Below are positions 41,229-58,614 of a DNA stretch of 64,000 nucleotides, piece after piece. Source of the stretch: a virus; IMG/VR virus record IMGVR_UViG_3300011113_000784, positions 1-64,000 of that record; one strand, given 5' to 3'. The notes under the pieces were generated by a model. It was not told the DNA's origin, made no database searches, and saw nothing but the letters and a program-made list of their open reading frames with translations. Position numbers and translations under genes: made by a program. The stretch's first letter is position 1; each line of letters opens with the position of its first letter.

Positions 41229-41513
41229 TCATGTCGGGCACAATAGTTTGGATTTGTTTTTCTTAAAATAATATTTGGAGGAAGATGGACGATTTTGAAG
41301 AGGAAGAAAGTTTTGAGAATTATTTAATTGTGATGGTTCTGACTTTTCTTTTTTGGCTTCTTCTTCTTTACTCTTTGCATCAAGTGTTTTGATCAACTCT
41401 TTGATTTCAGCTTTTTCAATTTCCTCTTTGCTAGGAAATTTTACGACTGGTGGCTCTTGAGCTAAGCAAATGCTTGATGCAAAGAGACATGTAAGAATTA
41501 TTCTATTTATCAT
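41229..41513 (-). CDS. Small secreted protein
   Basis: Signal-peptide-like MINRIILTCLFASSICLA. Confidence 0.6.
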   Translation of the reverse strand: MINRIILTCLFASSICLAQEPPVVKFPSKEEIEKAEIKELIKTLDAKSKEEEAKKEKSEPSQLNNSQNFLPLQNRPSSSKYYFKKNKSKLLCPT

Positions 41514-42793
41514 TCCTCGATGCCTTCAACGGCATTTGTCACAGTTTTTACTATCGCATCAAGAATGTCTTGACCATACAATTCAACTATTTTTGGCAGG
41601 ATGTTTTTAACTACCAGCTTTAGAAGCACGGTAGAAATTCCACCCATCTTTTGGTCTTTGAGCATTTCTTGCACTTGTTCTTTGCTAAGGGCACTAGCAC
41701 CCAAAGTTTTTTCGGTTTGATAATTAGCTTGCATTTTGATTTCAGACAACATGCTGAGTAAGAAATCAAGCACATTTGGACCAAATTTCTTAATCATTTC
41801 CATGATGAAGGATACAGAAAAATTACTTCTTAATCCTTCAGCAATAGTTGAAAGAACTTCTGGACCATATTTGCCCACTAAATCGGTCACATCGCTTGCT
41901 GCCATGCCTTTGCTGATGGCATCGTTCTTAAGGTCTTCTACTTCATTTTCTGGATAAAAGTACTTCGTAGTTGACATGTCTGACTCCATAGAGGTTTTAA
42001 CTACTGGAACATCATCTGCTTTGTTTGGATCGTTTGGATCATCCAAAACTCCTTGGAATGCAAAACAATCTAGCTCTCTACCACCAAAAGCTTCTTTTCT
42101 TAGATAGCAATAGCCTTTGATACCAAAATTAGAACCCCAGCTATTTTGGACTTTTACTAACCAGCCATACTTGGGGTGGTTTTTTAAACCACAAGCAAGC
42201 ATTGAGTGTCCACCAAGAACACCTCTAGCAAGAGGAGCAATGCCTTCTGAATCTACGCTAGTAAAATTATCGCCAACATTGATTCCTATGTTGACGACAA
42301 AGCCAAGATTCAAGGCTTGACAAATTTGATTAAATGATGTGCATTTATAGGCTTGATCTAGTTTAAATCTTGCTGCATTATCATATGCTGCCTTGGTCAA
42401 GCTTTTCTTGTAATAAACTTTATCACTTGGGAATGCATCGGTCTCACAAATGCCATATTTCATAGATGCGCTCATGGCATCAGAAATATAAGCACCATCA
42501 TCTGCTCCACCATTAATCAATGCATACATGAAAAATGGGTTGAAATTCTTTTCAACATTTTGACGCTGCTTATAAAGTATTTCCATGCCTGTAGCTGTGG
42601 CATGAGCTACGCAACTACTTGTATTTCTTTGATTTAAAATTCGGTGGCTTTCCCAAGACAGATCAATATCTCTAAGGGGCAAGGGATCTGCACCCATGAA
42701 AGTTGTGCCGAATAGAGGCAAATCATTTTCTGGGCTAGGCTTATAAGAAAGTACACGATAATATCCATCAAAAAATATTGCTGGAAAACTCAT
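41510..42793 (-). CDS. Papain-like (C1) cysteine peptidase with helical C-terminal domain
   Basis: Q..SSCVAHA, GGHSML, VQNSWG..G..GY. Confidence 0.88.
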   Translation of the reverse strand: MSFPAIFFDGYYRVLSYKPSPENDLPLFGTTFMGADPLPLRDIDLSWESHRILNQRNTSSCVAHATATGMEILYKQRQNVEKNFNPFFMYALINGGADDGAYISDAMSASMKYGICETDAFPSDKVYYKKSLTKAAYDNAARFKLDQAYKCTSFNQICQALNLGFVVNIGINVGDNFTSVDSEGIAPLARGVLGGHSMLACGLKNHPKYGWLVKVQNSWGSNFGIKGYCYLRKEAFGGRELDCFAFQGVLDDPNDPNKADDVPVVKTSMESDMSTTKYFYPENEVEDLKNDAISKGMAASDVTDLVGKYGPEVLSTIAEGLRSNFSVSFIMEMIKKFGPNVLDFLLSMLSEIKMQANYQTEKTLGASALSKEQVQEMLKDQKMGGISTVLLKLVVKNILPKIVELYGQDILDAIVKTVTNAVEGIEE

Positions 42794-42794
42794 T

Positions 42795-43556
42795 TTATTC
42801 TCCCTTTGTGATCTTGTTTAGGACTTTGATTACATCTGCATCAGTCTTTGGGATTGCGCTGTAATACAATACTGTTCCGTCACTTTTCTGAACAACAAAC
42901 AAAGTGTTGCCAGTCTTTTTCAAAAGCGTGTCCATATTTTTTTCTTTTACAATTTTGCTATTAATGTCATAGACTTTATAAAAACTTTTAGTGTTATTGA
43001 TAATATCTCTTATTTCTTTGCTGTTTAACACAGATGCTATTTCAGGAGAAGATTGGTTGTAATCCGTTAGGAAGGTTACATGTATGCCTTCTGTTACTTT
43101 TTCAGGAGTTACTTCTGGATCAACTGGTACTGGCTTAACAGGATCAGGCTTAATAGGATCGGGTTTTACAGGGTCTGTTCCTTTAATAGTAATGTCTGTT
43201 CGTGCAAATTCAGTTAATTTGCCATCAGCTAAAGCAATTGCAAAAACATTAACAACGCCAGATGGTGGTACGGAAACAATTAGACTGTTGGTAACATCAT
43301 TTGCAACAAATTTTACTTTGCTATTTCCGATTACAAACCATTTTACTTGACCCTTTGATTTCGCTTGAATAAGCATAAATCCTTCATTTGGATCAACTGT
43401 AACTGGCTCAGGCAGTTCTAATCCTTCAACTTTATTGGGTACGGAGTAAATTGGTGATTTGGGTACGGCTGGAGGTTCTGATGGTGCAAGAACACCATCA
43501 GCGAAAATATTTGTAGCTAAAGTTAATAAACAAAAAATTCGAAGCAGAATATTCAT
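42795..43556 (-). CDS. Secreted protein with Pro-rich (KPDP) linker
   Basis: Signal peptide; DPVKPDPIKPDPVKPVP. Confidence 0.7.
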   Translation of the reverse strand: MNILLRIFCLLTLATNIFADGVLAPSEPPAVPKSPIYSVPNKVEGLELPEPVTVDPNEGFMLIQAKSKGQVKWFVIGNSKVKFVANDVTNSLIVSVPPSGVVNVFAIALADGKLTEFARTDITIKGTDPVKPDPIKPDPVKPVPVDPEVTPEKVTEGIHVTFLTDYNQSSPEIASVLNSKEIRDIINNTKSFYKVYDINSKIVKEKNMDTLLKKTGNTLFVVQKSDGTVLYYSAIPKTDADVIKVLNKITKGE

Positions 43557-50395: not shown

Positions 50396-51589
50396 ATGCC
50401 TCGCCGTATTGATTCTGACCATAAAGACTTCAGAGATGTAGTCAGTGGCAGAATTAGAAAAAATCTAAAAAAGTTTATCAAGAGTGGCGAAATATTTCGC
50501 CACCGTGGTAAAAATGGCAAAGTATCAATAAAGATTCCTGCAATTGATATCCCTCACTTTCTTCACGGCAAGAACCCTAATGGGGTAGGTCGTGGAGAAG
50601 GACAAGAAGGAGATACTGTTGGCAAGGACAAGGGGCAAGGTCAAGGACAAGGAAACGGCGCTGGTCAGGATGAAAGCGAAGGCGTAATTGTTCAGCTAGA
50701 TATGGAGGACATCCTTCACTTCATGAAGGATGAATTGATGCTTCCTAATCTCAAACCTAAGCAACAAGCCAACCTTGAAGATGTAAAAATTAAGTATAAT
50801 AATATCTCTCTAGTTGGTCCAGAATCACTTAGGCATACTCGTCGCACAATGTTAACTGCGATGAAGCGCCTTTGCGGTACTGGCGAAATCAATAATTTAT
50901 ATGAAATTCCCGGCATTAAAGATAAAGTCAAAATGATCAATCCGATTAATTCGGATAAGAGATATCGTCAATATAAAGAGATTAGATTTCCTTCCAGCAA
51001 TGCTGTTGTTATTTTTGCTCGTGATGCCAGTGGATCAATGGATGATCGTAAAGTGGCAGTTGTTTCTGATATGGCTTATTGGATTGATGTTTATATTAGG
51101 AATTTCTATGAACGAGTTGAGAGGCTTTATGTTTGGCACGATGTAGCTGCCCATGAAGTTGATGCAAAAGATTTTTATCGAATCAGAAATGGTGGTGGCA
51201 CTACTTGTTCTACTGCTTTAGAATTAGTTGCCAAACAATTTGAAAACAGATTTCCTCCTAAAAATTGGAATATTTATTTCTTTTATTTCACTGATGGTGA
51301 AAATTACGATAATGACAACGATGTTTTTACGACTTTGTTAAAGAAAGAGTTTCCTCAAAATATTGTTAATCTTGTTTCTATAACTCAAATTGGTGCTTAT
51401 TCTTACAAAAACAGTGTTGCTGAGGTAGTTGAAAAAGAAATTGTTGAAGGTGGCTTAGATGATAATGTAATTGTTACAGAAATTCCATTTGATGCAATTA
51501 ACAATGAAGAAAAAAGAAATGAAGCTATATTAAAAGCAATAAAAGATATATTGGGCAACCCGTTTAAAAGCGCCAATGAGGTTTTCTAA
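50396..51589 (+). CDS. yeaH: YeaH/YhbH (DUF444) VWA-like protein
   Basis: LPNLKPK, SNAVVIFARDASGSM, GGT..S, NIYFFYFTDGEN. Confidence 0.9.
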   Translation: MPRRIDSDHKDFRDVVSGRIRKNLKKFIKSGEIFRHRGKNGKVSIKIPAIDIPHFLHGKNPNGVGRGEGQEGDTVGKDKGQGQGQGNGAGQDESEGVIVQLDMEDILHFMKDELMLPNLKPKQQANLEDVKIKYNNISLVGPESLRHTRRTMLTAMKRLCGTGEINNLYEIPGIKDKVKMINPINSDKRYRQYKEIRFPSSNAVVIFARDASGSMDDRKVAVVSDMAYWIDVYIRNFYERVERLYVWHDVAAHEVDAKDFYRIRNGGGTTCSTALELVAKQFENRFPPKNWNIYFFYFTDGENYDNDNDVFTTLLKKEFPQNIVNLVSITQIGAYSYKNSVAEVVEKEIVEGGLDDNVIVTEIPFDAINNEEKRNEAILKAIKDILGNPFKSANEVF

Positions 51590-53184
51590 TGTCAGACAAA
51601 TTCTTATTTGGTTCGCCTGTTCTTTTCGGATCTGCTACTACTCCCGGCGTACCTATTCCTGAAGAACTCAACAAACATATTCCAACTATTTTTCAAGCTT
51701 GTAAAGATTTTGGACTAGATTTTTATCCAACAATTGTCCAGATGCTTTCTCATGACGAAATGAGTGAAGTTGCAAGTTATGGTGGATTTGCATCGAGATA
51801 TCCACATTGGAAGTTTGGTGCTGAATATGAAGAGATGCAAAGAGGTTATCTTCACGGAAATCATAGAATATATGAAATGGTGGTAAATTGTAATCCGGCT
51901 TATCTATATTGCCTGAATTCGAATACATTGCTTGACAATATTACAGTAATTGCTCATGCGCTTGGTCATGTTCATTTCTTTAAGAATAATATTCATTTTT
52001 CTAGAACAAATACAAATGCACATAACGAACTGGCAAATAACGGTTCTAATGTAAGAAAGTATATGTCTCGTTATGGTAGAGAAACTGTAACAGAATTTAT
52101 GGATCATTTGTTCCGAATTGAAACTCTTGTTGATCCAATGAATATCTGGAAAGAAAGAAAAGCTAAAGAAGTTGTCATTAGGGACAAAAAAGACTATGTA
52201 TTTCCTAAAAGGATTAAGACAAATCAAGATTATATGGAAAACTGGATTAATACTCCAGAGTTTATAGAAGCTCAAAATAAGAAAATTGAAGAACAAGAGA
52301 TCATGAGAGATCTCAATGCATTCGCTTCTCCTGAATCAGATATATTTGGATATATCAAAGACAATGCGCCATTCAAACCTTGGCAGCGTGATATTGCTGA
52401 GATTTTGTACAATGAAGCTATTTATTTTAGTCCACAAGGCAAAACCAAGGTAACTAATGAAGGTTTTGCTAGTTATTGCGATTATCATCTTATCGCTAAA
52501 CAAGGATACGCTTCTTTAGGACAAGATAATGAGGATGGGGGTATTGTTGAGTACTCTATTCATAAAGCTGGTGTATTGGGCGGCAAATATAGCATGAATC
52601 CATACAAGCTTGGATTTATGTTATTAATGGATATCGAAGAAAGATGGAACAAGGGTAGATTTGGATCAGATTATGCCAATTGCACTAATCCAATTGAAAG
52701 GGAAAATTGGGATCTTAATCTTGGACTTGGTAAGGAAAAAGTTTTTGAGGTTTGCAAGAACTACGATGATTATCAATTCATAAATGAATTTTTTACCAAG
52801 GAGTTCTGTGAAAAGAATGAGTTCTTTGAGTACAAGCGTTATCCGACTGGTGAAATAAAGTTGGAAAGCAGAGATTACAAAAAGATCAAAAGAGAGTTGT
52901 TGCGTAAGCATATTAATCGTGGTTTGCCAAATATTAAGCTTGTTGAGCCTAGATTTAAAGGCAACATGTTTTTCATGGAGCATAAGTGGCAAGGTGTAGA
53001 ACTTTATAAACCTTATGCTTACGAAGTGATGAAGTCTATTTGTTATCTTGTGAGACAACCTGTTGTATTGCAAACCAAGAATCATAATGGGGATGAAGCA
53101 TTTTATTATTGCCAAGATTTGAACGGGGATTATGCTGCGGCTGATCCTAAATCTTTAACAAGAGATCAATTGAATAAACTATGA
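51589..53184 (+). CDS. spoVR: SpoVR/YcgB family protein
   Basis: RYPHWKFG, IYEMVVN-NP, AHALGHVHFFKNN, TKVTNEGFASY, NPYKLG. Confidence 0.93.
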   Translation: MSDKFLFGSPVLFGSATTPGVPIPEELNKHIPTIFQACKDFGLDFYPTIVQMLSHDEMSEVASYGGFASRYPHWKFGAEYEEMQRGYLHGNHRIYEMVVNCNPAYLYCLNSNTLLDNITVIAHALGHVHFFKNNIHFSRTNTNAHNELANNGSNVRKYMSRYGRETVTEFMDHLFRIETLVDPMNIWKERKAKEVVIRDKKDYVFPKRIKTNQDYMENWINTPEFIEAQNKKIEEQEIMRDLNAFASPESDIFGYIKDNAPFKPWQRDIAEILYNEAIYFSPQGKTKVTNEGFASYCDYHLIAKQGYASLGQDNEDGGIVEYSIHKAGVLGGKYSMNPYKLGFMLLMDIEERWNKGRFGSDYANCTNPIERENWDLNLGLGKEKVFEVCKNYDDYQFINEFFTKEFCEKNEFFEYKRYPTGEIKLESRDYKKIKRELLRKHINRGLPNIKLVEPRFKGNMFFMEHKWQGVELYKPYAYEVMKSICYLVRQPVVLQTKNHNGDEAFYYCQDLNGDYAAADPKSLTRDQLNKL

Positions 53185-53927
53185 ACCACCCCTCTTTTAG
53201 GTTTGTTTTTCAAAATGCTCCCGGTTTGCCATTTACTAAGTGGTACAAACAATTTGATGAAAGTTTAAGTGATAGAAATTCTAAAACATTTTTATTTGCT
53301 GACAGGTCAATTGCAAATTCTTGTTTTGTCAAAAGTATTCTTAGCCACAAAATATTTTTGAATATTTTTTGTTCAGAAAATATATTTGAAGAATTATCTT
53401 TAATACAAGAAAATATTAAGAAGCATTGCGAATCAATGCTTTTGAGAGGTATGTTTTCTGAATGTAAAATTGATTTCAATAGTGAAAAACATAAAGATTT
53501 TGTTTTAAGAGATTATAATCAAATTAATATAGGTGATATGTTTGGAGAAGAGTGGCAATTTTACTCTCAAAACAAAGCTAGATTGTTTTACAAACTAAGT
53601 GATTATTATTCAAATCTTTCTTTTGGATATATTTGGTCTTTCTTTTTTACAGAAAGTGATACAGAAGCACTTGTAGCAGACGAGTATGTAAAAAAGAATT
53701 TACATATTTTCAGTCGTCATATGAAATTAAACTATGAACCAGAAAACAATAAAAAATATAAAATAATTTATTTGGATACAATGGGTAAGAGAATAAATAT
53801 CAATACATTTATGGAAAAATTGGAGCAAAATGGTTTGTTGTTATTAAAAAACCTTGATGTTGAAGGACCAAACATGGTAGGATGGCGTGATCTGAAAAAT
53901 AAAATGATTGGACTGGTGAAGATTTAA
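53181..53927 (+). CDS. Hypothetical protein
   Basis: 248-aa AT-rich ORF. Confidence 0.6.
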   Translation: MNHPSFRFVFQNAPGLPFTKWYKQFDESLSDRNSKTFLFADRSIANSCFVKSILSHKIFLNIFCSENIFEELSLIQENIKKHCESMLLRGMFSECKIDFNSEKHKDFVLRDYNQINIGDMFGEEWQFYSQNKARLFYKLSDYYSNLSFGYIWSFFFTESDTEALVADEYVKKNLHIFSRHMKLNYEPENNKKYKIIYLDTMGKRININTFMEKLEQNGLLLLKNLDVEGPNMVGWRDLKNKMIGLVKI

Positions 53928-53928
53928 A

Positions 53929-54039
53929 ATGGCACAACTTATGTTAGAATATGTTTTATTTTTAATTTTAGTTTCTGCAATGTTAGGTTTTATTGCGTAT
54001 TTTTCCTATCAAGATAGAAGGAGAGATTTAGATGAATAA
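53929..54039 (+). CDS. 36-aa membrane peptide (not in ORF track)
   Basis: MAQLMLEYVLFLILVSAMLGFIAYFSYQDRRRDLDE. Confidence 0.5.
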   Translation: MAQLMLEYVLFLILVSAMLGFIAYFSYQDRRRDLDE

Positions 54040-54373
54040 TAAAAAAGAAATTAGTTATCAAGATCTCGATGAAATGGAAGAAATTATCGAAGCGTCTACG
54101 GATGGACCGTGGGAGATTTCTTCTCCAGAAGGAGAAGAATGGAGGCAACAAGCTAAAGATTTTGCTTTTATTGCAATGGCTAGAAATGAAATGCCTCGTT
54201 TAATCAAACAGTTGCGCTTGTATATGAAATGCAATGAAGAATTGCAATCATTAGATGGAATGCAACAGATGGCAATCGAAAGACTCAATAAGGAAGTTTC
54301 TCTTCTTCGTGAATCTTTGCGTGTACTTGAACAGCAACATAAATTGATGCTTGTGCAACAAGCAGGCTTGTAG
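54032..54373 (+). CDS. Ead/Ea22-like small phage protein
   Basis: ASTDGPW..DFAFIAMARNEMPRLI. Confidence 0.55.
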   Translation: MNNKKEISYQDLDEMEEIIEASTDGPWEISSPEGEEWRQQAKDFAFIAMARNEMPRLIKQLRLYMKCNEELQSLDGMQQMAIERLNKEVSLLRESLRVLEQQHKLMLVQQAGL

Positions 54374-54415
54374 TATAATTATCGAATACTAACCCTCTTT
54401 CTAACGGTGACGATC

Positions 54416-55800
54416 ATGGAAGAATTGAACAAGGAAGGAGGGCAGCACAAGCAGATGAAGATTGTTGGTTATGAACATCTTCATCTGCACTAGGTCAAAC
54501 AGAATACTCTGTCCTCGACGGTTTTGGTAGCGTTCAGGATTATATTGATAGGTGGTCACCGCATGGCGATTATCTCTGTGTAACAGATCATGGATTAATG
54601 GGTGCTATACCAAGCTTAATCACAAAAACAGAACAAGCAGAAAAGAAATTAAAAAGTTTGTACGGGTGCGAATTGTATGTGAACCCAATTCACAATGAAC
54701 CAACTGAGACTGAAGAAGCTAGAGACAAATTTATAAAAAACTTGTCACCACAAGAATTTGAAGATTTCAAAGTCTCTAGCCACATATTAGCAATTGCCGT
54801 AACCAATAAAGGTTATGAAAACCTAACAAAATTGTGTAGTCTTGGCTGGAGCCAAGGATTTTATCGTAAGCCTAGAGTCAATCACAAAGTTCTTCAACAA
54901 TATAAAGAAGGCATTGTTTTCACTTCTTGTTGTTGTGCTTCTGAAGCAGCAAGAGCTTTGCGTGTACATGGCAAAGAAGTTGCTGAAGCGACTATTCTTA
55001 AATACAAGCAAATGTTTGGAGATAACTTCTATCTTGAAATGATGCTTCTCGATTTTGAGTATCAACATGAGTATGATCAATTTTTAGTTGAGATGCACAT
55101 CAAACATCAAATTCCAATGATCATTACCAATGATGTTCATTACGCATATCAAGAGGATAGCAAGTATCAAACATTAATGATGTTGGTTAATACCAAAAGG
55201 ACATTGGCTGAGATTGAGAAGTTAAAAGCTGAGAATGCTGATGTGTTTGAATTGCAAGATAGAAATTTGTGGATGAAAACAGAGGAAGAATTGAATCAAA
55301 AGTGGGCTGAAAAGTATTCCGATGTAATTCCTTTAGAAATTTATGAACAAGCTAAAATGAATACTGTTAAGATATGCAGAATGGCATCTGGCTTAAAATT
55401 AGATAGAAGTGTAAAACTACCAAGGCTCAATGATGATGAAGGCGTTTTAAAAGATTTGGTTTTAAGAGGAATGACATATAGGGGAATATCAAAATCTAAT
55501 CGTATTTACACAAAGCGTATTGCAGAAGAATTAGATCTTATTTTTAGGAAACAGTTTGCTAGTTACTTTCTCATAGTTAAGAGTTTTACAGATGAAGCTA
55601 GAAGAAAGTGTCAAGAGATTACTGGGTTGGATGGCGTTTATGCGGTTGGACCCGGTAGAGGGTCTGGTGCTGGTTCTCTTGTGTTATATCTTCTTGGCGT
55701 TACTGATGTAGACCCAATAAAGCATGAACTTCTGTTCTCACGATTCTTATCGGAGAACAGAGGTTCACAAGCAGTATTAAAATTTAGTCAAGGTGACTGA
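54416..55800 (+). CDS. dnaE: DNA polymerase III alpha N-terminal part (PHP + partial palm), interrupted by 8 nt after HLHLH
   Basis: EHLHLH-TAG at 54491, then TEYSVLDG, VTDHG, GCELY, GFYRKPR, TNDVHY, GPGRGSGAGSLV-YLLGVTDVDPI..LLFSRFL in the frame of ORF 54598. Confidence 0.88.
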
Positions 55801-56077
55801 CTTCATAGTCATCAAAGTTACTTCCTTTAGAGAAGTCAACATTTGGTGTTCCAAGATCGCCAAAAGGTTTGTCAGTATTATAACCTTTTGCACGATATGC
55901 TTGGCTCTTTTTGCCTTGTAGTGGGAAGCTATAATGCTTTCCTTTAACGCCAGTATCTTCAGGGGCTTCTGGTTGGGGGAAAGCATAAGATTTCATGATA
56001 TCTTGAAGTTTTTTCTGAGAATCGCTAATTTCTAGATCTTTTTTATATTGCTCTAAAGTCTTAATTTTCTTTGCCAT
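55784..56077 (-). CDS. Hypothetical protein inserted between the dnaE halves
   Basis: SD GAGG; 97 aa. Confidence 0.65.
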   Translation of the reverse strand: MAKKIKTLEQYKKDLEISDSQKKLQDIMKSYAFPQPEAPEDTGVKGKHYSFPLQGKKSQAYRAKGYNTDKPFGDLGTPNVDFSKGSNFDDYEVSHLD

Positions 56078-56142
56078 GATTCACCTCTACTTTATTTAGA
56101 TTTTCACATTGATTTTTACCGCTAAATGCTTAAAATCATGGT

Positions 56143-58614
56143 ATGAATACCATATCTGTCGAAGATTTTAATAAAATTATCAACAATCAATTCAAGAAAT
56201 TTCCTTTTCATGATGATCCACGATATCAATTCAGGCTTAGATATGAGCTTTTAGAAATAGAAACACAAAATTGTTGTGATTATTTTATAGATTTGGTCAA
56301 ACAAAAGAAAAAATTTCTTAATGAAAACAATTTACTTGTCCCAGTGTTACTGGGAATTTGCAATGAATTCAATATTGATGAAATGCCCAAAACTAAAACA
56401 AATGAATTCCCCGATGTTGATATCGATTTCTTGGCAGATGTTCGTGATTATCTAAAAAACGAATATGCTCCCAATCAATATAAAGCTGAAAATACATGCT
56501 CTATTGGTACTTACGGCAGATATGCTTTAAAGAGCGCCATGATTGATATGGCAAGAATCTATGGATATGACCGACAAGAAGTTTTAAATATTACAACAAA
56601 TTTGAGAATGAAAGACGAAGATGGAGATGAATTGACATATGAAGAAGCTTTAGAAATGTATCCTGAGTTGAAATCTTATATGGACAAGTATCCAGAATTA
56701 GCATTAGCTGTTCAAAAGCTTATTCACAGAGTACGCAATACCGGCAAACATGCTGGCGGTGTAATTGTTGCCAAGGACGAGATTAATAAGTTTGTTCCAT
56801 TGATGAAAACCACAGGTGGTGACCAGCTTGTATCACAGTTTGTAGAAGGTTTGGCTACACAAGAATTAGGACCAATAGGTCTGGTAAAATTCGACTTGCT
56901 TGTTGTGTCTGCGTTAGAGCAGACGGGTCACGCAGTAAAAATGATAAAGGATAGGCATAATATCAAATTAATTTCAGGTGACAATCACGATTGGGACAAC
57001 ACAGATTATTTGAATGACCCCAAGGCTATTGCGAATGCCAACGAAGCAGATTTGATTGGCATATTCCAATATGATAGCAATGGGATTAGAGAAGTTGTAA
57101 AAGCTTCTGGTATTGATAGTTTTGATGACTTGGTTGCGATTGTCAGTTTGTATCGTCCCGGTCCATTGAATGCAGAAATGGATCAAGTGTTCATCAGAAG
57201 AAAAACAGGACAAGAAGAATATACAATCAATCCCGTGCTTGAACCTGTTCTTAAATCAACTTATGGAATTATTATCTACCAAGAACAAGTAATGAGGATT
57301 CTGAATGTTGTTGGCAAAATCCCTCTGAAAGATTGCGAAACAATCAGAAAGGCTATTTCTAAAAAGAAGATATCAAGTTTCATCAAGTATAAAGAACAAT
57401 TCATTGAAAACGGTGTTAATGTTCTTGGAATTTCCAGAGAAGAAGTCGCTGATATATTTCAGAATATTGAATTCTTCTCAGCTTATGGTTTTAACTTAAG
57501 TCATGCCACCGCTTATACTTACATCAGCAGCCGACAATTATATTTGAAAACTTATTATCCATTAGAATTCTTTACTGCTTTGTTGATGTTGGAAGGTAGT
57601 GAAGAGAAGAAGCGCATTTATATTACAGATGCTCAAAATCATGGAATTGAAGTTCGGGCAGTTGACCTAAACACAAGCAAAGCCAATTTCTCGATACAAG
57701 ATAATGCCATTTACATTGGTTTTGGCAATATTAAAGGTATCGGAATGGATACTGCCAATAAGATTGTAGCCTTGCAACCGTTTAAAGACATAGATGATTT
57801 TCTTCGTCGGTTTGGCACAGACTCTAGTGTTTTGAAAGCACTGATTCCGTTGAAGGTCTTTGGAGAAGACACAAAGAGAGCTTACAACTATTGGCAAGCT
57901 TTTATGGCTAAGAACAAAAAGGTTGTTGACAAAAATAAGAGATCTAATAAGTCTTATCTCGATCTGAAGAAGACAGTGTTATATCTGTTGCCTGAAAAGT
58001 ATAGGAATTTGGAATTGTCTGAAGAATTGTTTTCAATTCTTAAATCAATTAATGATTCTGCTGATGTGAACAAGCTGCATAAGAAATGGGTGAGGATGAA
58101 TTCTAAAGAAGAAGCAAAGATTGAAATTTCTTATGAAGACTTTGATGATGATGACATTGTCATCGAAGATAAAGAGTTGCTGCTTGAATTAAATGATATT
58201 TGTGTGGCTGAGAGAAAGTATTATGGGTTTCAGTTTACTTGCAGACTAAGAATGCTAAAGATGTACAGTGAGAACTGTACATTTGACCGTGTTATTAATT
58301 CTCATGCCTTGGGTGCGACTAAGCACATGGTTCAAATTGAAATATTGGATGTCAATAAAAGATATTCAAAATCTGGTAAGCCCTATTGCCAGTTAGTTGC
58401 TATGGATAGTAATTTCAGAATTGAGAGGATTAATGTGTGGGAAGATGATTACGCTATATTCAAACATTTGCTTGAGGTTAACAAATGTTTGTCAATGCAG
58501 GTCAAACCACCTTCTAATGGATTTTCTACTTATAGCCTAAATTCTCCTCCTAAAAACAGGAGATATTTACTTCCATCATCAGAGATGGATTTCAGAATTG
58601 TTTTAATGGACTAG
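56143..58614 (+). CDS. dnaE: DNA polymerase III alpha catalytic part
   Basis: PDVDIDF, GKHAGGV, GLVKFDLL, GIFQ, LYRPGP, TYGIIIYQEQVM, YGFNLSHATAY, IKGIG, OB-like end. Confidence 0.93.
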   Translation: MNTISVEDFNKIINNQFKKFPFHDDPRYQFRLRYELLEIETQNCCDYFIDLVKQKKKFLNENNLLVPVLLGICNEFNIDEMPKTKTNEFPDVDIDFLADVRDYLKNEYAPNQYKAENTCSIGTYGRYALKSAMIDMARIYGYDRQEVLNITTNLRMKDEDGDELTYEEALEMYPELKSYMDKYPELALAVQKLIHRVRNTGKHAGGVIVAKDEINKFVPLMKTTGGDQLVSQFVEGLATQELGPIGLVKFDLLVVSALEQTGHAVKMIKDRHNIKLISGDNHDWDNTDYLNDPKAIANANEADLIGIFQYDSNGIREVVKASGIDSFDDLVAIVSLYRPGPLNAEMDQVFIRRKTGQEEYTINPVLEPVLKSTYGIIIYQEQVMRILNVVGKIPLKDCETIRKAISKKKISSFIKYKEQFIENGVNVLGISREEVADIFQNIEFFSAYGFNLSHATAYTYISSRQLYLKTYYPLEFFTALLMLEGSEEKKRIYITDAQNHGIEVRAVDLNTSKANFSIQDNAIYIGFGNIKGIGMDTANKIVALQPFKDIDDFLRRFGTDSSVLKALIPLKVFGEDTKRAYNYWQAFMAKNKKVVDKNKRSNKSYLDLKKTVLYLLPEKYRNLELSEELFSILKSINDSADVNKLHKKWVRMNSKEEAKIEISYEDFDDDDIVIEDKELLLELNDICVAERKYYGFQFTCRLRMLKMYSENCTFDRVINSHALGATKHMVQIEILDVNKRYSKSGKPYCQLVAMDSNFRIERINVWEDDYAIFKHLLEVNKCLSMQVKPPSNGFSTYSLNSPPKNRRYLLPSSEMDFRIVLMD

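Follow-up and report, generated by a model that had tools for sequence, protein, structure and literature searches.

A stop-initiated 8-nucleotide gap in the dnaE gene of a huge phage, probably crossed by a short hairpin-assisted translational hop

To our knowledge, efficient programmed bypassing has been described in essentially one phage system, gene 60 of T4 and its homologues, and in one yeast mitochondrial lineage. Stop-hopping in E. coli was reportedly first described by Weiss et al. 1987 and O'Connor et al. 1989, and the mobE and segG genes of T4-like phages are said to undergo intronless homing, with co-conversion of flanking markers. In gene 60, which is associated with the nuclease MobA, the insert blocks self-cleavage, the nuclease has often been lost while the bypass is kept, UAG predominates, and there is latitude in P-site re-pairing (10.1101/2022.08.31.505936). 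Pairing of the mRNA leaving the ribosome has been proposed to drive the forward bypassing (Wills et al., 10.1101/2024.12.09.627546), and the T4 cassette was still called unique in a recent survey (Manning and Atkins, 10.1101/2022.08.31.505936). The low-level E. coli events are short hops between matched codons across a stop, as summarised from refs 29 and 30 in 10.1101/2024.12.09.627546. The byps of Magnusiomyces capitatus mitochondria span 27-55 nucleotides (nt), contain a GC hairpin, occur many times per genome and have no link to an endonuclease gene (ref 13 of 10.1101/2022.08.31.505936). This study focused on an 8-nt gap near the start of dnaE in a viral DNA, IMG/VR record IMGVR_UViG_3300011113_000784, of which the first 64 kilobases (kb) of 110,967 base pairs (bp) were analysed and are here called the window. 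Comparison with related loci leads us to favour, with a probability of about 70%, a short hairpin-assisted translational hop over a gap that is 5-8 nt long in different members of the family.

The frame that carries the beginning of DnaE in the window starts at ATG 54416, includes an internal ATG at 54455 and reads MEELNKEGGQHKQMKIVGYEHLHLH over 54416-54493; it ends in ..MKIVGYEHLHLH, the His codon CAC (54488-90) being followed by TAG (54491-93). The continuation, TEYSVLDG, lies in a different frame that opens at 54475 and ends at the stop at 55800, with 433 codons from 54499. Removal of 54491-54498 (TAGGTCAA) gives HLHLH-TEYSVLDG, which has the spacing of Thermus DnaE (2hpi: HLHQHTQFSLLDG), as seen through alignment of a 93%-identical uninterrupted relative (P0003). 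The Pfam PHP profile matches the downstream piece only from profile position 6 onward, so that the HxH positions are missing from this piece, and the nine PHP metal ligands are complete only with both halves joined. Being a TAG plus a change of frame, the gap is untranslatable, and it stands between two halves that are both conserved as protein. Sequence and translations thereby confirm what an earlier note on this DNA, made from its letters alone, had described, namely a stop-initiated, frame-changing 8-nt interruption of the dnaE PHP motif; the hairpin it reported, ending at the take-off codon and burying ATG 54455, is also present. Coordinates are collected in Table 1.

An assembly artefact does not explain the gap. 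The analysis began from a single metagenomic contig, which would favour a sequencing or assembly error or a very recent inactivating mutation in one genome, but this explanation is already refuted: a 4038-nt contig from an independent soil-metagenome study (run X4) covers 53500-55788 with no alignment gaps, the same 8 nt included, and dozens of contigs from other samples are gapped at the same dnaE codon. Among the latter, loci L001, L027 and L059 have 8-nt gaps with other letters (TAGCTGAC, TAGTTAAC and TAGTTGAC, respectively), L001 being 88% identical to the window in protein and about 80% in DNA over 45 kb. In an aquaculture metagenome (run X8), Logan contigs break at the junction of take-off codon and gap, one ending at 54489 (94%) and the next beginning at 54492 (99%), which suggests mixed alleles at the gap site in that sample.

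When IMG/VR was scanned for the pattern G[FY]EHLHLH plus an ensuing stop-like triplet (TRR), 29 loci were retrieved. Every one is a dnaE start, and between them they show 17 distinct gaps, 5, 6, 7 or 8 nt in length, immediately 3' of the same His codon. Gaps at this codon accompanied by a conserved hairpin, for which the earlier note had advised looking in related phages, were found in many lineages. The first triplet of the 17 distinct gaps is TAG in 15 and TGA in two, and never TAA. The last triplet matches the His codon CAY at two or more positions in 16 of the 17 (binomial 3e-9); the final two bases are A followed by C or T in 13, and the triplet is fully cognate (CAC or CAT) in two. Gap length differs between sister lineages (5 nt in L104, 8 nt in L113), and a 7-nt interruption of the PHP motif occurs in L060, from a lineage with an HNH homologue. 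As these lengths represent each of the three frame classes, the motif is restored in every case only if the gap is skipped in full.

These same data bear on a programmed frameshift, an option named in the earlier note, by which a +2 or -1 shift at CAC-TAG would leave the gap partly translated as HLHLH-GQ-TEYS or HLHLH-LGQ-TEYS. Eight nt is equivalent to such a shift, and shifting is classically stimulated by a stop in the A site, but there is no slippery sequence at this site and tRNA-His cannot re-pair on GCA or CTA. Near-identical cassettes with gaps of 5, 6, 7 and 8 nt would moreover need three types of shift, including in-frame stop read-through. The letters after TAG vary freely, three of the five differing between the window and L001, although the neighbouring cassette is 98-100% identical, and the spacing H-x-H-[ST]-x-[YF]-S is found without insertion in Thermus DnaE and in all uninterrupted alleles seen. 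Frameshifting is considered quite improbable.

The pattern of substitutions indicates that selection acts on both dnaE halves at the level of the protein. In 19 distinct cassettes the codons of G[FY]EHLHLH vary almost solely synonymously, and just 3' of the gap the differences between the window and L001 are mostly synonymous. This is difficult to reconcile with a lesion that is simply tolerated, with a 25-amino acid (aa) peptide ending at TAG and either a truncated DnaE-N made from an internal start (54598) or a dispensable PHP metal site. For many such alleles (P0009, P0038 and others), the proteins annotated by gene callers are indeed truncated, and the phage DnaE already consists of two separate polypeptides. 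Against this, the TEYSVLDG frame has no ATG, GTG or TTG between 54475 and 54598, where its first ATG stands, yet the 33 codons of 54499-54597 (TEYSVLDG..TDHG) are conserved, with synonymous changes, in gapped lineages. The cassette-borne IVG[FY]EHLHLH is likewise conserved as protein with synonymous variation, though the associated HNH proteins are merely 45-50% identical, and a tolerated lesion gives no reason for the constraint on the gap's last triplet and on the hairpin. We regard it as unlikely.

The hairpin pairs GCAGATGAAGAT (54451-62) with ATCTTCATCTGC (54477-88) in its core, followed by an inner GTT/AAC with one bulged T, and its 3' arm ends on the first nucleotide of the take-off codon CAC. 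In the window the 44-mer has a folding energy of -20.5 kcal/mol, and in its 101-nt context z = -3.6, with 0 of 200 shuffles folding as well. The 12-bp core is paired throughout in the 19 distinct cassettes, with compensatory double changes at 4 of the 12 pairs; the observed covariation score was reached by none of 500 shuffles, and pairing is 87% in the real register against 31-49% in slid registers. Changes in the 3' arm are synonymous in HLHLH, while their 5'-arm partners alter leader residues. RNAalifold, applied to a 140-nt alignment, gave the hairpin 5' of the take-off codon as the sole consensus structure; a pairing of the Shine-Dalgarno-like run with 54510-17, seen in single-sequence folds, was dropped because it is not conserved. 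The 44 nt 5' of the gap fold with -18 to -25 kcal/mol in 19 gapped alleles versus -1.7 to -9.9 kcal/mol at the corresponding place in 14 uninterrupted ones (Mann-Whitney p = 7e-7), the co-varying hairpin being specific to gapped alleles. Cassettes lacking the HNH gene also preserve the hairpin with compensatory changes, which ties its role to dnaE expression rather than to the nuclease message. An in-frame upstream ATG is retained by each of the 19 distinct cassettes, giving a nascent chain of 20-25 aa at take-off; uninterrupted alleles start 2-3 codons before IVGF and have 12-14 residues at the take-off position. The Shine-Dalgarno-like run AAGGAAGGAGGG in the leader could be either the ribosome-binding site for ATG 54455 or a signal within the leader, and a sigma-70 scan listed no promoter directly upstream of the window leader.

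A hairpin beside the gap could also guide a nuclease and ligase, if the 8 nt were excised or edited from the mRNA before translation as a kind of micro-intron, and such removal would account for a restored motif and for gaps of varying length. An initial stop and a His-like final triplet are, on the other hand, what would be expected of a translational event and not of splicing. No Rfam family was matched in the window, neither a self-splicing intron nor another known RNA family, and we know of no bacterial or phage mechanism that removes 5-8 nt from mRNA. The RNA runs X7, in which the gap site is uncovered, and X20 do not bear on excision. Removal at the RNA level is accordingly rated as very improbable.

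The earlier note had proposed a hop over the stop-initiated gap, helped by the hairpin and resembling that of gene 60, and this is the reading favoured by the comparative evidence of gap lengths, landing triplets and the co-varying hairpin, from which we infer both the hop and the part played in it by the hairpin. A ribosome with peptidyl-tRNA-His on CAC 54488-90 would meet TAG in its A site without terminating, slip 8 nt forward, re-pair its tRNA-His on CAA 54496-98 and restart decoding at ACA 54499. The product would be ..EHLHLH-TEYSVLDG.. (junction peptide ..EHLHLHTEYSVLDG..), with the PHP metal site intact. At take-off, the 5' arm and loop of the hairpin would be outside the ribosome and the 3' arm inside, so that re-zipping behind the ribosome probably pulls the mRNA 5-8 nt forward. 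Such a hop would agree both with the driving force proposed for gene 60, in which exiting mRNA pairs, and with the latitude reported for re-pairing in the P site.

Several points weigh against the hop. TRR was required in the search pattern, so the stop-first rule is partly imposed by the search; it is likewise true of loci found through protein and HNH searches. The window's landing, from CAC to CAA, matches at positions 1-2 of 3, a match unique to the window among the 17 gaps, and with a merely near-cognate landing triplet the efficiency of the hop could be low. Neither a take-off stem-loop within the gap nor a mini-Shine-Dalgarno 5' of the landing site was found, and 8 nt leave no room for them. 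Inheritance of the cassette as one unit means that hairpin and gap could be associated partly through linkage. The gap-less L023 has a weaker hairpin (-9.9 kcal/mol) at the same place, so the structure may partly control initiation at ATG 54455, and either 54416 or 54455 may serve as start codon of the first exon. The coverage by RNA run X20 is confined to 55693-55956, with the gap site outside.

The gap forms the right edge of a mobile cassette made up of an HNH gene, a leader, the cassette's own dnaE codons 1-12, the hairpin and the gap. This is seen in loci L027 and L028, which are about 94% alike, have a common promoter-like TTGACA..TAAAAT and are identical over at least the first 75 nt inspected 3' of the gap. 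A 49-nt segment of L028, with the ribosome-binding site and codons 1-12, is exchanged in L027 for a 391-aa open reading frame (ORF), a leader, new codons 1-12 and the 8-nt gap; the new codons are different synonymous ones, and the replacement ends exactly at codon 13. The 391-aa ORF matches PHROG 559, 'HNH endonuclease' (E 3e-22), and weakly Pfam HNH, and searches against cultured phages gave distant partial matches only. Other gapped lineages have homologues, at 39-50% identity, in the position immediately 5' of dnaE. An HNH ORF stands beside dnaE in L027, L059, L060, L092-96, L105-107, L114 and L117, and short remnants in L113 and L115; counted over the 29 gapped loci, it is directly upstream in about 11, reduced to a remnant in 2, and absent from about 10 that have enough upstream sequence. 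As a separate observation, tandem repeats of about 80-165 nt follow the DnaE-N gene in L028 (3489-4247), and L027:3374-3476 matches seven places there.

The window and L001 have the leader, hairpin and gap without an HNH gene, and in the window a resident 113-aa ORF ends at 54373. There is no HNH homologue in the window's 111-kb record, and the window therefore carries an orphan remnant of the cassette. Its homology to the gap-less sisters L023 and L024 stops at about 54298-54358 and resumes at 54455, and the 68 nt of 54426-54493 are 93-100% identical to L001, with flanks of 40-80%. In a DnaE-N tree, the sampling of which is biased since gapped loci were sought by pattern, gap presence changes at least 8-9 times, and the window's sister L024 is gap-less. 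Patchy occurrence in close relatives, together with the replacement of the flanking target, is as expected of a homing cassette. The earlier note held that uninterrupted relatives, with no joined peptide made, would refute its proposal; the closest relatives, L023 and L024, are indeed uninterrupted, but this reflects mobility of the cassette and is not a refutation.

In the explanation we favour, the gap is what a free-standing HNH homing-endonuclease cassette has left behind; this cassette has the dnaE 5' end as its target in a large clade of huge phages and enters between the dnaE promoter and codon 13. The gap thereby interrupts the best-conserved stretch of dnaE sequence, which encodes the PHP motif HLHLH[ST]xYS. 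Judging from the case of MobA and gene 60, the gap probably renders its carrier immune to its own nuclease; in the window genome the nuclease gene later disappeared, while the leader, hairpin and gap remained. The earlier suggestion that the interruption gates the proofreading subunit found no support; it is better explained as the self-immunity scar of such a cassette. At L044/L065, L064 and L066, the dnaE gene immediately 3' of an HNH homologue is uninterrupted but has an altered motif (HLHCHSHYS or HLHLHSDRS), which may represent immunity by point changes rather than by a gap.

Other interruptions were observed near the start of dnaE. In L068 (2519-2545), an in-frame 6-nt gap, CTT TAA CTT, lies between ..SDFSV and DG; its take-off and landing Leu codons are perfectly matched, and it is downstream of an HNH homologue and lacks a 5' hairpin. 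A 55%-identical clade with the same HNH family has its gap after HLHLHTD, of 42 nt in L045-L048 and L051 and of 40 nt in L052 and L070. These gaps contain a 10-bp GC hairpin with TAA in the loop, and since 40 and 42 nt differ in frame, both could not be crossed by read-through; the hairpin occurs once per genome and so is no dispersed repeat. Two gaps are present in one dnaE start in L109 (3039-3120), the first being of the 8-nt type (TAGGTTAT) after HLHLH and the second, six codons on, 46 nt long, with TAA first, a GC-rich 12-bp hairpin and an A-rich end with GAG, in strong likeness to T4 gene 60. An apparent 50-nt gap in L039 was rejected, as its dnaE start is intact; just 5' of this distant dnaE start is an out-of-frame ..EIFHLHLH.. 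remnant (1925-1960) that may be a displaced older first exon.

The dnaE gap resembles T4 gene 60 and MobA in many respects, and this precedent supports the reading of a hop. In both, an essential replication gene is interrupted at its most conserved motif by an untranslatable insert, UAG or UGA comes directly after the take-off codon, re-pairing of the peptidyl-tRNA downstream is proposed, and an mRNA hairpin stands 5' of take-off; in both, an HNH cassette that carries the insert adds an N-terminal extension, and the gap often outlives the nuclease gene. The differences are that dnaE is not a topoisomerase gene, that 5-8 nt are skipped instead of about 50 (the 50-nt bypass), that the landing triplet is usually near-cognate, and that there is no in-gap take-off stem-loop or mini-Shine-Dalgarno. 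The dnaE hairpin is also strongly conserved and co-varying, whereas the T4 5' stem-loop was reported not to be conserved between clades (10.1101/2022.08.31.505936). By BLASTP, the HNH ORF of L027 gave E = 1.3 and 0.11 with T4 gp60.1 and the mobA remnant; this lack of significant similarity to the T4 MobA remnants argues for an independent invention and not a homologue. Literature searches found no paper on such a hop in dnaE and returned the gene 60/MobA family alone, all topoisomerase genes.

Stop-hopping in E. coli shares with the dnaE gap a distance of a few nt, a stop in the A site and re-pairing of the same peptidyl-tRNA, and the CTT TAA CTT of L068 is exactly of this kind. Those hops are unprogrammed and inefficient laboratory events, whereas the dnaE site occurs naturally in an essential gene, is equipped with its own conserved hairpin and leader and owes its spread to a mobile element. 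Like the dnaE gaps, byps are mobile short coding inserts that are skipped in translation, with wobble and larger deviations between take-off and landing tolerated; the dnaE gap differs from byps in having one site per genome and being linked to HNH genes. The 40-46-nt hairpin gaps of L045, L052 and L109 are more byp-like than the 8 nt of the window. In mobE and segG, as in the dnaE cassette, the nuclease lies beside its target gene, the flanking target is replaced by the donor version and distribution is patchy. They protect themselves by point polymorphisms in the target, whereas the dnaE cassette would do so by an untranslatable insertion that requires recoding.

Table 1. Coordinates of the interrupted dnaE start and associated features in the window.
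Feature	Position	Strand	Remarks
5' hairpin	54451..54488	+	12-bp core 54451-62 / 54477-88, bulged T 54463, inner 3 bp 54464-66 / 54474-76, loop 54467-73
Leader and first dnaE exon, 25 codons (MEELNKEGGQHKQ-MKIVGYEHLHLH), from in-frame upstream ATG to take-off codon	54416..54490	+	
Take-off codon CAC (His, third His of HLHLH)	54488..54490	+	CAC or CAT in every cassette
8-nt coding gap TAGGTCAA; stop TAG 54491-93; proposed landing triplet CAA 54496-98 (peptidyl-tRNA-His)	54491..54498	+	
ATG at canonical DnaE start (MKIVGY..), buried in hairpin 5' arm	54455..54457	+	Aligned to start codon of uninterrupted alleles
Purine-rich Shine-Dalgarno-like run AAGGAAGGAGGG in leader	54431..54442	+	AGGAG-like run conserved at same place in aligned cassettes
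Mobile-cassette remnant (leader, dnaE codons 1-12, hairpin, gap)	54374..54498	+	Comparison with L023/L024, L001, L027/L028
DnaE N-terminal gene, remainder after gap (PHP from TEYSVLDG, first part of palm)	54499..55800	+	Pfam PHP and DNA_pol3_alpha; stop TGA 55798-55800
Separate gene, C-terminal part of DnaE (palm with PDVDIDF, fingers, HhH)	56143..58614	+	Outside the gap device; split common to relatives

The CheckV completeness of the source record is 23%, and a complete 527-kb phage among its relatives indicates that the window genome is that of a huge phage. Coding is dense under table 11, the standard code, and TAG terminates 12% of long ORFs (window/record). No tRNA genes were found in the window or in the whole 111-kb record, and neither a suppressor tRNA nor an alternative code is indicated in this genome. 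The dnaE region had no Megablast match among GenBank phages; at the protein level the nearest GenBank phage record is an uncultured 595-kb phage at 48% identity, and there is no cultured close relative. A tblastn comparison of G000, G001 and G002 for other frame-broken genes revealed gene-boundary differences only, in a scan that is blind to breaks this near a start.

Some further features of this genome were noted. After ..LFSRFLSENRG, dnaE is split into two genes (window 55784-56143; also in G001, G002 and G005), between which the opposite strand carries a 97-aa ORF that belongs to no known family, and the second piece begins with about 85 aa resembling a decayed copy of the preceding segment. 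The halves are 1.65-2 kb apart in G001 and G002 and about 15 kb apart in G005, so that the split is old and the spacer variable. Two genes upstream of dnaE, a SpoVR-like protein (51589-53184, plus strand; Pfam PF04293, E 1e-96) is unusual phage cargo. A 435-aa ORF on the minus strand (41510-42817) corresponds to two adjacent genes (stop, Shine-Dalgarno, ATG) in G001 and G002, and as a sense codon replaces the stop, the two genes are fused or read through in the window genome.

On balance, we lean towards regarding the dnaE cassettes as a second, independently evolved phage family of programmed translational bypass, a minimal device, spread among huge phages, that would serve as the self-immunity module of an HNH nuclease and survive the loss of that nuclease. 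Within this family, peptidyl-tRNA-His would leave CAY at UAG or UGA and re-pair on a near-cognate NAY or CAN triplet. Such dnaE genes come out truncated or split from gene callers, and annotations of huge-phage replicases are in consequence systematically wrong at this site. If the proposal is true, the combination of a hop and a homing endonuclease would be a recurrent evolutionary solution, reached in dnaE by an unrelated cassette. It would also provide some 20 natural variants of a much simpler signal, consisting of a hairpin, a stop and a near-cognate landing triplet, and with them a direct test of whether pairing of the exiting mRNA drives the forward sliding of the ribosome.

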